Positions 4,907 to 23,395 of a stretch of DNA of 38,024 bases are shown here, in pieces. This DNA is from Minisyncoccota bacterium (GTDB lineage: Bacteria > Patescibacteriota > Minisyncoccia > SW-4-49-11): contig JALQTA010000002.1 of NCBI GenBank assembly GCA_023264145.1, forward strand, positions 1-38,024. Reading direction: 5' to 3'. Position 1 is the first letter of the stretch; every line of letters starts with the position of its first letter. Made by a program: the position numbers and the translations under genes. The notes under the pieces were generated by a model, which saw only the letters and a list, made by a program, of their open reading frames with translations, did not search any database and was not told the DNA's origin.

Positions 4907-6133
4907 TTAAATTGCATCTAAAGCTGCCTGTAAGGCATTCCCTGGAGCAGTATAATTACTTAGTGTTGTAGCAGATCCTATTGCCCACACTAAGATACGA
5001 ACATCAGAATAACTATCTGGAGCATTAGATGAGCTACCACTTCGTGCTAAAACATAAAAGGGTCTTGTACTTGAGGATTGGGAAGCTTGAGTTTGTGTTG
5101 TTACCACATCGCCTAGCATACGTTGATAATTACCACTAACACCACGACTAATTCCATAACCGCCAAGACTTGTTGAGCTAAATGCTTGTGAAGCACTATT
5201 ACGAGATCTAGTAAGCTGATTCCATGCGAGACTCCATGAACCATTCCCAAACCCTCCATTCCCAAATAAAACACTTGGATTATTTGTGGGAGCACCCGTA
5301 GTAAGAACATATGTATGTAGATTATCCTGTCCAAATGAGGAGCCTGTATATCCAGTTATTATATATTTACTCGTTCCATTCCCTCTCACACCGGTTTTTA
5401 TATTAAAATCTCCTGCAACCAACCCCACATGAGTAGGCGTAATTCCTTTTATGGGAACTAAACCACCATTCACAGTTGTTGCTCCAGCAAATACAACTAA
5501 CTGTGTAATCGTATCCCACATTCCAGGAGTTTCTTTTAGAGTAACTACATAATCATTAATAGCTTGAGCATAAGCAGTAGGCACGGGATCACCTAAAGAA
5601 GCACGAGCATCCATCATTGCCTGTACATCTGGATCATATGAGATAGTAGCCCCCCCTGGAGTGACTACCTCTGGAGGTAAAGGATTATTGATAGCAATAG
5701 AAGTTGATGATTCCGCACGCAAGGCAATTAAACTGACTATATTAGCATTATTATCGACTGCAATACTATACCCAGATCCTCCGGTATTATCGTCATCTTC
5801 TGGATCTTGAGGGATAAGATTAAGATAGGTTGGGACAAGAGAAGATAAATCTATATATCCTGCGCATGTACTTGCATCAGGATCACAAATTTCTTGATGA
5901 TTACGCGTGATACCAGTCGGATATGATCCTTCCTGTAATCGATATTGAGTTAAAGCTGATTCAATACGCAAAATATCAGTATTTCTTTGATTATTACGGG
6001 CCTCAGCAATTTGCCCAATTGGATCAAACGTTACTAAGGTAATGGCGAGTAGTAATCCTACTAAAGCAAGTACTAATAACACTTCCAGAAGCGTAAATCC
6101 TTTTTTTTGTTTTACTATATCTTTTTGTTTCAT
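4907..6133 (-). CDS. modular type IV pilin-like protein: prepilin N-terminal domain plus ~260-aa Cys-free beta-rich C-terminal module
   Basis: KKG|FTLLEVLLVLALVGLLLAI with Glu+5. YP motif. Cys pair EICDPDASTC followed by YIDLSSLVPTYLNLIPQDP. Residues ~150-408 are Gly/Ser/Thr/Asn-rich with no Cys. Confidence 0.85.
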   Translation of the reverse strand: MKQKDIVKQKKGFTLLEVLLVLALVGLLLAITLVTFDPIGQIAEARNNQRNTDILRIESALTQYRLQEGSYPTGITRNHQEICDPDASTCAGYIDLSSLVPTYLNLIPQDPEDDDNTGGSGYSIAVDNNANIVSLIALRAESSTSIAINNPLPPEVVTPGGATISYDPDVQAMMDARASLGDPVPTAYAQAINDYVVTLKETPGMWDTITQLVVFAGATTVNGGLVPIKGITPTHVGLVAGDFNIKTGVRGNGTSKYIITGYTGSSFGQDNLHTYVLTTGAPTNNPSVLFGNGGFGNGSWSLAWNQLTRSRNSASQAFSSTSLGGYGISRGVSGNYQRMLGDVVTTQTQASQSSSTRPFYVLARSGSSSNAPDSYSDVRILVWAIGSATTLSNYTAPGNALQAALDAI

Positions 6134-11999: not shown

Positions 12000-12740
12000 T
12001 TATTTCAAAAGTTCATCAAGATATTGCTCAAAGGTTGCAATAGGAAGAGCTCCTGCAATACGAAGCCCTTGAGTTACTTTCCCATTTTCAAGCTTTCCAA
12101 TAATAAATCCTGGGGTACCCGTAATTCCATTATCATTCCCAAAGGAAATCCCCGCTTTTACTTTATCTGCAGTTTTTTCTTCTTTAAGACAAGTATCAAA
12201 TTCCGCGGTATCAAGATCCTTAATATCTTTTGCTAATTCATTCAATTGAGACTCTTCCATTCCAGCTCCTCCACTTTCTGTATTTTTGAATATTAAATCC
12301 GCATAATCAAAAAATCCTTGATTCCCTTTTTGTTCATATACACATTGGGCAGCAATTGCCTGCTTAGTTGCAAGAGGATCATGAAAATCTAATGGATAAT
12401 CTTTCCACGCAAGGATAGCCTTTCCTGATTCAACATATTGAGAAATAATATCTAAGCGAGCTCCATCATGAAATCGCTTACAAAAAGGACATTCATAATC
12501 ACTAAACTCAATAATAGCAATTTGAGCTTTATCCTTATCCCCTAGATAAGGAGTGTCTTCCGATAAATCAACGGATATATCTCGAGCCTCAACAGGATCA
12601 TTGGGATCTTGGGCTACTACTGGCTGTTGAGAATTATTTGATTGATTCGCTTGACTCCCATTATAGACAATCGCAGAAGCTATCATCATTCCTGACAATA
12701 AAATTGAAGCCACCACTAATAAAATTGATTTGTTTTCCAT
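12000..12740 (-). CDS. membrane-anchored DsbA-family thiol:disulfide oxidoreductase
   Basis: 246 aa. N-terminal TM SILLVVASILLSGMMIASAIVY. Thioredoxin-fold active site FSDYECPFCKRF. GTPGFIIG is the cis-Pro loop region. Confidence 0.85.
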   Translation of the reverse strand: MENKSILLVVASILLSGMMIASAIVYNGSQANQSNNSQQPVVAQDPNDPVEARDISVDLSEDTPYLGDKDKAQIAIIEFSDYECPFCKRFHDGARLDIISQYVESGKAILAWKDYPLDFHDPLATKQAIAAQCVYEQKGNQGFFDYADLIFKNTESGGAGMEESQLNELAKDIKDLDTAEFDTCLKEEKTADKVKAGISFGNDNGITGTPGFIIGKLENGKVTQGLRIAGALPIATFEQYLDELLK

Positions 12741-14769: not shown

Positions 14770-15426
14770 TTATTTTTTTAATTCAGCATCAATTAATGTC
14801 TTGAATTCATCCAGGCTTTGTGGATTCTTGATAATCACCCCATTCAAAATAAAGGTTGGGGTTGAATTAATACCAAGAGCAACTCCTGATTGATAATCTT
14901 TTTCTACTCGTTCTTTAGAGTCATCATCAGATTTCATATCTTCTTCAAACTCAGCAACATCTAATCCGAGTCCTTGAGCATAAGCACTAAAGAATCCTCG
15001 TGGATCTTTTTCTTCAGCCCACTCAGATTGTTTTTCAAATAATACATCTTTCATTTCCCAAAATTTTCCTTCCTCCCCAGCAGATTCAGCAGCTTGAGCT
15101 GCAAGATCAGCATTCGGATGAATACTTCGTAACGGGAAATGCCTAAATACAAATTTCAATTCCTCTGCCGTATATGATTCTCTCAACTGCTTAATAATAG
15201 GTTCATATGATTTACATGCTGGACATTGGAAATCACTATATTCAATTAAGGTTACTTTGGCATCACTATTTCCTAAAAAAGTGTCTTCTTCCGTCACTTC
15301 GACATTCACTTCTCGAGTACCACTATTCTGACTATTAAGCCCCCATATTACTGCCCCAATTACTACCAAAATGGTTACAATAACAATTCCTTTACCGATA
15401 AAATTATTTTCTGTTACATCACTCAT
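14770..15426 (-). CDS. membrane-anchored DsbA-family thiol:disulfide oxidoreductase (second paralogue)
   Basis: 218 aa. TM GIVIVTILVVIGAVIWGL. Active site YSDFQCPACKSY. STPTFILNG cis-Pro region. Its stop abuts the idi start. Confidence 0.85.
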   Translation of the reverse strand: MSDVTENNFIGKGIVIVTILVVIGAVIWGLNSQNSGTREVNVEVTEEDTFLGNSDAKVTLIEYSDFQCPACKSYEPIIKQLRESYTAEELKFVFRHFPLRSIHPNADLAAQAAESAGEEGKFWEMKDVLFEKQSEWAEEKDPRGFFSAYAQGLGLDVAEFEEDMKSDDDSKERVEKDYQSGVALGINSTPTFILNGVIIKNPQSLDEFKTLIDAELKK

Positions 15427-21730: not shown

Positions 21731-23395
21731 CTATTGAGTAAGAGCTTGTAAGGTTGTAGTTGATAATTCATTTGAAAAGAAAACCACCCGAGATAATACC
21801 CCATTAAGATAATTACTATTATTCCCATTTCTTCCTAAGGCGATTTGATTAAATGTACTTCCAATATTTACTGCACTCACTCCTGTTGCAGTTACTCCAT
21901 TAAGGGCAACATTTCTCGTTGTTGAATTAAAGGAAGCTCCTATTTTACTTATATTTGCAACCACATTTGCACTTGGATTACTAACTTGAGTGCTAATACT
22001 TCCATCCCAAATACCAATTCGGGTATTCAAAAGCTCTCGGGAAATAGCTACTCCTCCTCCATTAAACCCTATAAATCGTCCATAACCATTTTGAGTACTT
22101 TCAAGCCCACCTCGTCCTTGAATAAAAAATGATCCTATTGATGTGTTAGATACCGTACTCGTAAAATTAGTCCCACTAATGGTTCCATTATCTGCATTAC
22201 GAATTACCGAACTTCCTGTTGTTGGGATATAAGATGTCGGAAATACTCCCGTTTCTAGCTGTGCTCCCCATACATGAACATAGGATGAGGCATTATCTCC
22301 AGCAAATGATGTCACATTAGATTCATTACTCAATAATATGCGAAATCTCCTATTAGTCGCAGCGGTATCCGGATATCCAGACACCCATAATCTCCACCAA
22401 CCATTCCCATAATCTTGAGCTCCCCAACTTGTTGTTACTCCTCCTCCCGATGTGTATTCCGCCGTATTAGTAAAAGTAGCGACGCCTGTAGAAAAGTTAA
22501 ATATTACTCCATGCATGGCATTTCCCGTTCCGTATACTAATAATCGTGCAGCTGATCCTAGTCCTTGTTTGACAAAAATAGAACTCGTAGTATTAGTAGC
22601 TGTAGTGAAGCCAGTAGGATTAATTTCAATCCAATGAGATGTATTTACTGTATTTGCAATCACTCCATCTGCGCTTTGATTTCCATCTGGTCCTATAATA
22701 GTATTTTGAGAAATATTAGAGGAAGCTAATGTCCATGCTAGCTGAAATTCTTCACTACGCGTTGCTAGATTCGTTCTCGACTCCTCTACTAAAAGCCCCA
22801 AACTTTCCTTTGTAATAGGATTGTGGTCAAATCGAGGTTCATTGATGGCGGCTGTCTTTATGAGCCCATCTTCTCCTATATGTGTCCCTGTACTTGCTCT
22901 CGTAAAGGTTATAAGATTATTCCCACTTGCATTATCTATTAAGCTCTTATTACTTGCAAAGTTTAAGTCTAAACTTGGTGTACCTCCTATATTCCATATA
23001 CTATCTTTTGGATGAGTCACTTCTATACTTGTTCCTGCACTATTCCTTCTTATATAATAATATCCTGTATCTGGTTCTGGTATATTGGCTATATAATCTG
23101 GACTGAGGAGACTTAAATCTACACACCCTACAGGTGGACTCGTAGTTGGACATATTACCCTTGCTCCTGTATCTATCCCCCCAGGATATTGTCCATTATT
23201 ATCTATTGCATATTGTCCTATAGACTTTATGATAGTATTTATATCGCTTTTCCTCTTTGCTGCTCGGGCTGATTCTATTTGCTTATTAGGATTTATTGCG
23301 ACCAATACGATAGCTGCTAATATCCCTATTGCAGCTATTACCAATAATATTTCTAATAGCGTGAATCCTTTTTTTCTTTTTGATTTTTGCATCAT
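21731..23395 (-). CDS. modular type IV pilin-like protein: prepilin N-terminal domain plus ~415-aa phage tail-fibre-like / lectin-like C-terminal module
   Basis: RKKG|FTLLEILLVIAAIGILAAIVLVAINP with Glu+5. YP motif. Cys pair VICPTTSPPVGC then VDLSLLSPDYIANIPEPD. From residue ~141: SLDLNFASNKSL..ITFTRASTGTHIGEDG..NEPRFDHNP..GLLVEESRTNL, then a long Cys-free S/T/N/G-rich sequence. Confidence 0.85.
   Translation of the reverse strand: MMQKSKRKKGFTLLEILLVIAAIGILAAIVLVAINPNKQIESARAAKRKSDINTIIKSIGQYAIDNNGQYPGGIDTGARVICPTTSPPVGCVDLSLLSPDYIANIPEPDTGYYYIRRNSAGTSIEVTHPKDSIWNIGGTPSLDLNFASNKSLIDNASGNNLITFTRASTGTHIGEDGLIKTAAINEPRFDHNPITKESLGLLVEESRTNLATRSEEFQLAWTLASSNISQNTIIGPDGNQSADGVIANTVNTSHWIEINPTGFTTATNTTSSIFVKQGLGSAARLLVYGTGNAMHGVIFNFSTGVATFTNTAEYTSGGGVTTSWGAQDYGNGWWRLWVSGYPDTAATNRRFRILLSNESNVTSFAGDNASSYVHVWGAQLETGVFPTSYIPTTGSSVIRNADNGTISGTNFTSTVSNTSIGSFFIQGRGGLESTQNGYGRFIGFNGGGVAISRELLNTRIGIWDGSISTQVSNPSANVVANISKIGASFNSTTRNVALNGVTATGVSAVNIGSTFNQIALGRNGNNSNYLNGVLSRVVFFSNELSTTTLQALTQ

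Follow-up and report, generated by a model that had tools for sequence, protein, structure and literature searches.

A type IV pilin of a Minisyncoccota bacterium carrying a phage-virion-family module with an exchanged core domain

The DNA considered here, a stretch of 38,024 nucleotides from a Minisyncoccota bacterium (assembly GCA_023264145.1, contig JALQTA010000002.1, positions 1 to 38,024; the window in what follows), contains on its minus strand a gene for a protein of 554 residues that joins a pilin to a large C-terminal module. An original prediction, made from the letters of the sequence, had described this protein as a type IV pilin fused to a phage receptor-binding-type domain. We find that the gene is chromosomal, belongs to the Patescibacteria (Parcubacteria/Minisyncoccia-type) and codes for a type IV pilin of the modular kind, most likely a minor one, and that parts of its module are replaced wholesale between closely related strains.

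The pilin, its junction and the fusion family

The N-terminal 138 residues constitute a complete pilin, consisting of a class III leader, an alpha1 helix with glutamate at position +5 and a small disulfide-bonded head. All elements that had been claimed for this part are present: the KKG/FTLLE processing site yields the mature N-terminus FTLLEILLV with Glu at mature position 5, a YP motif stands at residue 70, and the only two cysteines, C82 and C91, are followed by VDLSLLSPDYIANIPEPD. Pfam N_methyl (27.4 bits, cutoff 21.2) and TIGR02532 (28 bits, cutoff 16.3) score above their cutoffs, while the GspG equivalog TIGR01710 is not reached (37.2 bits against a cutoff of 88.85) and Pfam T2SSG gives no detection in the 554-residue protein. 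In an AlphaFold2 (AF2) model built from 76 homologues (mean predicted local distance difference test score, pLDDT, 81.9; predicted template-modelling score, pTM, 0.75), the pilin part has the lollipop fold of pilins, with a long alpha1 helix (residues 13-65, about 50 residues) and a small beta head that has strands at 79-127 and contains the Cys pair, and PDB sequence matches over the helix are to geopilin, GspG and PilA. Residues 11-65 of alpha1 are the filament-assembly interface. In 35 aligned fusions there is no variation at G10, F11, T12, E15 and C82, C91 shows at least 90% conservation, and the head is 39-46% identical to other pilins of the window. None of the features by which type IV pilins are recognised in sequence is thus missing from the N-terminus, which does not look like an unrelated membrane anchor.

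The same ORF (open reading frame) continues into a module of 416 residues (139-554) which, as predicted, is free of cysteine and rich in Ser, Thr, Asn and Gly (46% together), and in which the string SLDLNF...EESRTNL begins at residue 141 (nucleotide 22975). The junction residues G138, P140, L142 and D143 are invariant in the 35 aligned fusions, and because of this conservation, which extends over dozens of independent assemblies, neither a frameshift nor an assembly break can be placed there. A chance origin is excluded by far by an uninterrupted frame of 554 codons in DNA of 34% GC and by 3975 database relatives at E<=1e-5. With a pilin at 1-138 and a module at 139-554 that matches virion families, the protein has the composition that defines a modular pilin (sensu Raynaud et al., 2021). 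The positions of all features are collected in Table 1.

Table 1. Positions in the window of the 554-residue modular pilin, its segments and other genes discussed in the text.
Feature	Positions	Strand	Basis or remark
Whole gene, 554-aa modular type IV pilin	21731..23395	-	ORF list; stop codon 21731-21733; 48 full-length fusion homologues in 120 best matches
Class III signal-peptide leader, residues 1-10 (MMQKSKRKKG)	23366..23395	-	Gly-1 at end; profile matches; G10 invariant in 35 fusions
Mature alpha1 helix, residues 11-65	23201..23365	-	F+1, E+5, hydrophobic core; AF2 helices 13-34, 36-65
Small pilin head and short conserved linker, residues 66-138	22982..23200	-	YP, C82-C91, ...HPKDSIWNIGG linker
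Module stem, residues 139-210	22766..22981	-	PSLDLNF...ITFTRAS...PRFDH...GLLVEESRTNL; common to fusions and phage proteins; 5' recombination flank
Core A cassette, residues 211-390, hypervariable predicted ConA/LamG-type beta-sandwich	22226..22765	-	NF048003 match 202-401; pLDDT mostly >90
Hinge, residues 391-410 (...TTGSSVIRNADNGTISGTN)	22166..22225	-	Conserved; 3' recombination flank with WGAQLE.G.FPTSYIPT
Module B, residues 411-554, second predicted beta-sandwich (weaker model) and conserved C-terminal helix LSTTTLQALTQ	21734..22165	-	AF2; inside PHROG 5939 match
Micro-recombination tract, 67 nt, module B residues 498-520	21836..21902	-	All 12 single-nucleotide polymorphisms of contig L084
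Alpha1 codons 11-50 (divergent DNA)	23246..23365	-	Comparison with contig L085
Second modular pilin, 408 aa	4907..6133	-	Class III signal peptide KKGFTLLEVLLV
Small pilin or pilin-like, 146 aa	32364..32804	-	
Small pilin or pilin-like, 154 aa	18163..18627	+	
Small pilin or pilin-like, 138 aa	1120..1536	-	
VirD4/TrwB-like coupling ATPase, 806 aa	24440..26860	-	TrwB_AAD_bind, DUF87, TraG-D_C, DUF8128
DsbA-like thioredoxin-fold protein	12000..12740	-	
DsbA-like thioredoxin-fold protein	14770..15426	-	

By homology the 416 C-terminal residues belong with a family of virion proteins, among them Rcc01080 of the Rhodobacter gene-transfer agent RcGTA, the PHROG 5939 proteins and a domain of the Pbunavirus baseplate wedge. 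PHROG 5939 ('tail protein') matches residues 139-554 with an E value of 6.6e-66 over profile positions 354-762 of 801, and the NCBIfam model NF048003 (phage head spike fiber domain) matches residues 202-401 with 131.8 bits against a cutoff of 36 over its full 182 positions; Pfam does not detect the module in this protein. The best sequence match in the PDB is Rcc01080 (E 5e-26 with the single sequence, 2e-58 with a family profile), residues 156-407 of the fusion being aligned with residues 43-278 of Rcc01080, and further matches are to gp45 of phage E217 and gp46 of phage Pa193, both from the Pseudomonas phage baseplate wedge (about 1e-24), and to 9OCC, a 'tail fiber protein gp17' (2e-16). These matches bear out the phage tail-fibre family named in the original prediction. 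The idea of a receptor-binding-type fusion is supported, and none of the three observations that were to refute it was made; it needs the refinement that the best-characterised relative is a monomeric head-spike or accessory fibre and not a classical trimeric tail-fibre receptor-binding protein.

The fusion is not peculiar to this genome. The 120 best database matches come from assemblies of ENA, JGI, NCBI and Logan; 48 of them are full-length fusions, 493-651 residues long, that share an identical junction, and five more are truncated at the N-terminus. Within species-representative genomes, full-length fusions occur in one metagenome-assembled genome (MAG) of the Parcubacteria group, which has two paralogues, and in one MAG of the Minisyncoccia, and the pilin part alone is 35-58% identical to pilins across the Patescibacteria. 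Public names describe one half of the protein, either 'prepilin-type N-terminal cleavage/methylation domain' or 'phage head spike fiber domain-containing protein [Minisyncoccia bacterium]'.

In the window the neighbours are dnaX, the genes for tryptophanyl-tRNA synthetase (TrpRS), a VirD4-like ATPase, seryl-tRNA synthetase, transketolase and RuvA, and similar genes, and the fusions at other, non-syntenic loci stand beside MreBC and penicillin-binding protein genes, ribosomal protein genes or ZnuABC. No phage genes were found in the window or beside the fusion at six other loci (two contigs syntenic with the window and four others). Because the context of virion genes is absent at all of these places, the gene is a member of NF048003 and PHROG 5939 at the level of the domain. 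The same evidence bears on the question whether the gene could be an artefact or belong to a mobile element, that is, an assembly chimera, a frameshifted gene pair or a prophage or phage protein, as might be suggested by a module typical of phages and by a GC content that is slightly raised across 22-23 kb of the window. This explanation is effectively refuted by the invariant junction in fusions from four sources of assemblies, by the recurrence of the fusion on the two syntenic contigs, by the lack of phage genes in the window and at the four further loci, by the absence of a pilin N-terminus from the 80 best IMG/VR loci, and by the GC content at third codon positions (GC3) of the core A segment of the module, which at 0.234 equals the genome norm of 0.235 +/- 0.032.

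Several further observations concern the setting of the gene. Only 18 nt separate TrpRS from the start of the pilin gene and no obvious Shine-Dalgarno sequence precedes it, so that co-transcription with TrpRS is likely. The VirD4/TrwB-like ATPase lies two genes upstream, with TrpRS between, and this linkage was not seen at the non-syntenic loci. The two DsbA-like proteins of the window could form the conserved C82-C91 disulfide of the pilin. Tandem fusion paralogues of 515 and 551 residues occur on a JGI contig (L168; 3462-5009 and 5160-6815), and the two fusions of the Parcubacteria MAG (L004 and L005) are about 196 kb apart on the same 425-kb contig, an indication that a small set of fusions is maintained in some genomes.

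A module shared with phages and gene-transfer agents

The module is laid out as stem, core A sandwich, hinge and sandwich B. In the AF2 model residues 140-410 are all-beta and mostly above pLDDT 90, and module B has strands at 422-540 and a helix at 546-553 with pLDDT values of 54-90; the model thus predicts that this module of a virion protein family consists of two beta-sandwiches of the ConA/LamG type. Foldseek searches found strong similarity to both lectin and tail-fibre folds. Against the PDB, two phage baseplate proteins came first; after them stood, each at probability 1.0, paired laminin LG4-5 and neurexin LNS domains, CBM40, pentraxins and botulinum neurotoxin Hc (BoNT Hc) domains. 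Against viral models (BFVD), uncultured Caudovirales supplied proteins of the 'ConA-like lectin/glucanase superfamily' (probability 1.0, E 2e-31, TM 0.83 on a 414-residue target), and annotated Escherichia phage tail fibres were also matched. Core A is the equivalent of the 'GTA_spike_fiber' domain and the putative specificity determinant.

Since the ConA-like lectin/glucanase superfamily includes glycoside hydrolases, the module might instead be a glycan-degrading enzyme, a depolymerase displayed on a pilus or on the cell surface, with invariant acidic residues in a catalytic role. Foldseek matches to GH101, GH43 and sialidase-associated domains point in this direction, as does the invariance of E204 and E381, which, together with R166, R188 and L201, do not vary across all 76 aligned sequences; in addition, modular pilins with predicted peptidase modules exist (Raynaud et al., PMC8179133). 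We nevertheless regard this as improbable. The enzyme matches are to accessory beta-sandwich or CBM domains and have TM values of 0.1-0.2, neither Pfam nor NCBIfam detects a hydrolase family, and the invariant residues lie at both ends of the core A insertion, which is more consistent with a structural role, whereas the variable domain has no conserved motif. Moreover, Rcc01080 binds capsule, and the biofilm-degrading enzyme of RcGTA is TspA, described as a tailspike.

One subunit of Rcc01080 is present per RcGTA head spike, where residues 2-10 anchor it to a pentameric base and the remainder is flexible (PMC7296036), and the fibre attaches RcGTA particles to the capsular polysaccharide of Rhodobacter (PMC7296036; PMC10218006). 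Because the structure 6TB9 resolves just residues 2-10 of Rcc01080, a solved structure for the sandwich as such is available only from the homologues in E217 and Pa193. In contrast to Rcc01080 (GhsB), in which the N-terminus is a capsid-spike anchor, the fusion has a pilin in this place; with 325 residues Rcc01080 is also too short for sandwich B, which the fusion possesses. We infer that a monomeric fibre of this kind suits grafting onto a single pilin subunit.

Relatives of the module are widespread on viruses. Carriers among cultured phages include RcapMu, RcWaterboi and phages of Rhizobium, Nonlabens, Synechococcus and Escherichia, in which the proteins are annotated as tail, tail-fibre, minor tail or structural proteins, and at least 563 IMG/VR stretches encode a relative. 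In none of the 80 best IMG/VR loci is the module preceded by the pilin N-terminus (class III signal peptide and alpha1 helix); their matches begin at residue 91 or later, mostly at 130-140, and reach residue 554 at 33-45% identity. On a siphovirus-like IMG/VR contig (L092), a module-only protein of 446 residues is encoded between the major head/Ad1 adaptor genes on one side and the genes for Neck1, the major tail protein and the tape measure on the other, which is the position of a head or neck fibre. Directly upstream, a 186-residue ORF without a PHROG match (5375-5935 of that contig) stands where the base of a head spike, an analogue of Rcc01079, might be expected. In a Comamonas prophage (L086), the module protein is encoded after a protein with collagen repeats and ahead of the lysis genes, in the position of a tail fibre. 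Many module-only proteins, that of L092 among them, have about 30-45 N-terminal residues ahead of PSLDLxF, and in the fusions the pilin occupies exactly that position. An anchor swap, in which the pilin replaced the virion-attachment peptide, is the simplest description of this arrangement.

The entire module (139-554) is shared with the phage proteins of PHROG 5939, and structures of core A homologues are known from E217 gp45 and Pa193 gp46. Unlike the fusion, these phage relatives are virion components that often carry 2-9 tandem copies of core A, and those examined lack a pilin N-terminus. An exhaustive HMMER search with core A yielded 5891 representative clusters, and among the 150 best matches none of the 144 newly retrieved proteins has a pilin N-terminus. 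In many of these relatives the order is stem, repeated core A (2-9 tandem copies), hinge and sandwich B, and one is a lambda-J-like tail protein of 1700 residues with the same 'GWWRLW..GYPD.AATNRRFR' subtype. Four very long database proteins (P0121, P0127, P0163 and P0123; 2161-3449 residues) contain up to nine tandem copies of core A or repeat whole units of stem, core A, hinge and B.

Exchange of core A and sandwich B between strains

Conservation along the fusion is uneven. Over the 48 fusions, identity to the window protein is 87% in alpha1 (residues 11-45), 58% in the pilin head and about 77% in residues 139-200, falls to 13-29% in residues 205-380, rises to 61% in residues 381-400 and falls again to 14-29% in residues 411-540. 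The stem is 72-77% identical to viral loci as well and 96% identical to the syntenic contig L085, and in the hinge R399 and D402 are nearly invariant.

A controlled comparison is offered by two contigs syntenic with the window, L084 and L085. L085 is 93.4% identical to the window as DNA, and eight neighbouring proteins are 91.5-99.1% identical with dN/dS (the ratio of nonsynonymous to synonymous divergence) of 0.02-0.16, while the fusion itself is 73.6% identical. The difference lies almost wholly in residues 206-380, which are 31% identical (dN 0.79), against 87-96% in all other segments and 90-96% in the flanks of core A. Core A of the two strains is unalignable as DNA: nucleotide identity is about 0.9, drops to 0.24-0.67 between codons 211 and 390 and then returns to 0.93-0.97, which is also the value of the hinge, with sharp breakpoints directly after EESRTNL and within or after WGAQLE..FPTSYIPT. 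In core A dN/dS is 0.64 and dS is saturated. A variable module on a conserved pilin, which had been proposed as a sign of a receptor-binding role, is thus strongly in evidence. A scan of metagenome contigs for further alleles of the locus with exact 33-mers gave 0 matches, and a protein-based scan of metagenomes returned only 6 distant module-only loci, so that L084 and L085 are the two close alleles on which the comparison is based.

L084 represents the same strain as the window and differs from it at 12 of 11,851 aligned nucleotides, all of them within 67 nt of module B, with five substitutions. At 12 of 12 of these sites L084 equals L085, and six of the 12 lie at third codon positions. This is a short recombination tract, produced neither by random mutation nor by a diversity-generating retroelement (DGR). 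Diversification by a DGR is ruled out more generally by the third-position changes, by the identity of the tract with the L085 allele, by the lack of any repeat of the variable regions in the window that could serve as a template, and by the absence of a reverse-transcriptase family among the window ORFs scanned with Pfam. A silent cassette locus or an invertase was likewise not found in the window, nor was a DGR.

The relationships of the segments point in the same direction. Of the first 120 proteins, the 13 that match core A best are without exception non-pilin proteins (36-56% identity, the closest sampled relatives 48-56%), and no fusion exceeds about 34%, the syntenic orthologue reaching 27%. 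For sandwich B, identity is 71% to two proteins (P0014 and P0016) that reach only 50% in the pilin part, and 13-20% to fusions with 70% identical pilins. Judged from these identities, the segments of the fusion have different histories, sandwich B being shuffled independently. Core A, and independently sandwich B, are exchanged as cassettes between otherwise near-identical chromosomes. As the GC3 of the cassette equals the genome norm, its donor had a CPR-like composition (CPR, Candidate Phyla Radiation), which points to an allele from a related member of the CPR or to one of their phages. The closest sampled relatives of core A include the Comamonas prophage, but the same value rules out that the cassette was recently acquired from a proteobacterial phage of high GC content.

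Alpha1 codons 11-50 were also compared with L085 and show 78% identity as DNA and 90% as protein, and dS over fusion codons 1-45 is about 1.2, against about 0.17-0.45 in neighbouring genes. This segment may be another imported piece; at a nucleotide identity of 0.52-0.63, the pilin paralogues that can be seen in the window are ruled out as its source through gene conversion.

A module that derives from a genuine phage-virion family and diversifies rapidly could also be the product of an arms race, in which a cell-borne fibre domain acts as a decoy that masks or competes for the receptors of phages or rival episymbionts. We consider this highly improbable: pilin-borne decoys have no known precedent, the neighbours of the fusions are housekeeping genes that differ between loci, with no defence genes seen among them (no PADLOC search was made), and adhesion simply explains why the domain is displayed on a pilin.

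Exchange of this kind has well-known counterparts, as mosaic phage tail fibres and the variation of pilE and pilS in Neisseria are recombinational cassettes for host range or antigenicity. With these the fusion shares a variable, ligand-facing block between conserved flanks, its wholesale replacement and also short conversion-like tracts; unlike in Neisseria, the window contains no detectable silent locus.

A candidate adhesin and its relation to known pilins

The statements on the anatomy and the evolution of the fusion, taken by themselves, are near certain. With rather less assurance, although we consider it probable, we propose as a whole that the protein is a minor pilin which, in a type IV pilus, displays a phage-derived glycan adhesin with a specificity cassette exchanged by recombination. 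Prepilin peptidase would cleave the leader, and the pilin part would be built into the pilus as a low-abundance subunit, which on account of its bulk would probably sit at the tip; the pilus would then present the module, which would bind the surface polysaccharide of a partner or host cell, and swapping of core A by recombination would re-target the adhesin in the manner of phage host-range cassettes. Binding to glycans is suggested by the capsule binding of Rcc01080 and by the LamG, CBM and pentraxin folds, which typically bind glycans, and a tip location has been argued from bulk for modular pilins (PMC8179133).

Several points weigh against this proposal. Genes for PilB, PilC, PilD, PilM and PilT were not found in the 38-kb window or in the surroundings of the homologues examined, and processing and assembly are therefore assumed from the general biology of the CPR; type IV pili are reported to be well conserved in Patescibacteria (PMC11623550). 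The position at the tip is argued from the bulk of the subunit, and binding of glycan or capsule by analogy with Rcc01080 and from the fold class. The homologous domain of E217 gp45 has no demonstrated binding role, no binding-site motif was identified in the module, and the family-invariant R166, R188, E204 and E381 lie in the stem and hinge, outside the variable domain, and carry no information on a binding site. Divergence of core A could in part reflect relaxed constraint, and the organism may be episymbiotic or free-living.

The lack of pilus machinery genes in the window and beside the homologues would suit a cell-surface protein for glycan capture, which uses its signal peptide for export and anchoring in the membrane or on a short stalk, and whose module scavenges polysaccharides and nutrients or mediates attachment in biofilms. 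Archaea possess such a 'bindosome', in which sugar-binding proteins are exported and anchored through a class III signal peptide, and the bulk of the module (416 residues against 128 of pilin) and a lectin-type fold that is compatible with any glycan-binding role would be in keeping with it. We think it unlikely, however, because the full alpha1 helix and the disulfide-bonded head have been kept, being 58-87% conserved in the family and 39-46% identical to the small pilins of the genome, and because hypervariable cassettes swapped between strains are more typical of the recognition of partners or receptors than of the capture of nutrients. Furthermore, lectin-like minor pilins of Saccharibacteria belong to real pili and affect host binding (PMC11623550).

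Such comparisons with known pilins favour display on a pilus, and they also indicate what distinguishes the present protein. According to Raynaud et al. (2021, PMC8179133), PilB and PilC of Streptococcus sanguinis, which carry a vWA and a ConA-like lectin module, respectively, are pilus-displayed adhesins, and CPR phyla commonly possess modular pilins. Our protein resembles the S. sanguinis proteins in its design, in which a class III signal peptide and a small pilin module are joined by a short linker to a bulky functional module at the C-terminus, and PilC also in the class of its lectin-type beta-sandwich fold. It differs in that its module consists of two sandwiches around a conserved stem and hinge and in the cassette-wise exchange of its core domain from strain to strain, and, with respect to the modular pilins described in the available part of that paper, in the derivation of the module from the phage-virion family PHROG 5939/NF048003. 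Also comparable are the minor pilins PilX1 (jelly-roll, L-type-lectin-like) and PilX2 (beta-propeller) of TM7x (Saccharibacteria), which are proposed as tip proteins that bind host glycans, with PilX2 needed for efficient host binding (PMC11623550). These, too, are pilins of Patescibacteria with a lectin-like C-terminal accessory domain, a likeness that we draw from their description and not from their sequence; in contrast to the present protein, they belong to another class (Saccharibacteria as opposed to Parcubacteria/Minisyncoccia) and are not described, in the available part of that paper, as having phage homology or swapped cassettes. Relative to established modular pilins and to lectin-like minor pilins of the CPR, the phage-derived module and its cassette exchange are new. 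Our literature search found no published work that combines 'head spike fiber' with 'pilin', and the Patescibacteria pilus literature that it returned describes, in its available parts, neither phage-derived modules nor cassette swapping.

The protein is also not the only pilin of the window with such a module. The second modular pilin, of 408 residues, has a head 46% identical to that of the 554-residue protein, and its module (residues 167-396) matches phrog_17104, a family of unknown function (E 1.8e-31), as well as hypothetical proteins of the Synechococcus cyanophages S-CBS4 and KBS-S-2A, so that two pilins with modules from phage families lie within one 38-kb window. Three further small pilin or pilin-like genes are found among the housekeeping genes. 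One of them, of 146 residues, is 96% identical between strains with a dN/dS of 0.04 and is for this reason a plausible candidate for the major pilin.

A wider reading, which we put forward as a tentative possibility and hold to be doubtful, is that ultra-small bacteria of the Parcubacteria type and phages share one recombining pool of receptor-binding cassettes, in which the pilus tip would be the cellular analogue of an accessory fibre and swaps of core A at its conserved flanks would set, and quickly reset, the range of partners of an episymbiont; cassettes swapped in would then possibly come from phages that target the same surface glycans of the partner. On this reading, the presence of a second pilin with a different phage-family module suggests a general strategy rather than a one-off fusion.

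Little is known of how the ultra-small CPR bacteria, or Patescibacteria, recognise and select the cells with which they associate, and very few of them have been cultivated outside the Saccharibacteria. The fusion family offers a concrete candidate for a recognition determinant. Its relatives serve to attach particles of the phage type to capsular polysaccharide, and strains with 93% identity elsewhere have nothing in common in one of its domains, about 180 residues long; the finding would moderately surprise a specialist. If our interpretation is correct, the range of partners would become predictable from metagenomes by typing of cassettes, the domestication of a monomeric virion fibre, with its capsid anchor swapped for a pilin, would be documented, and the concept of the modular pilin would be extended to a phage-derived switching of specificity driven by recombination. 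The question of partner choice in the CPR thereby becomes specific and testable at core A.

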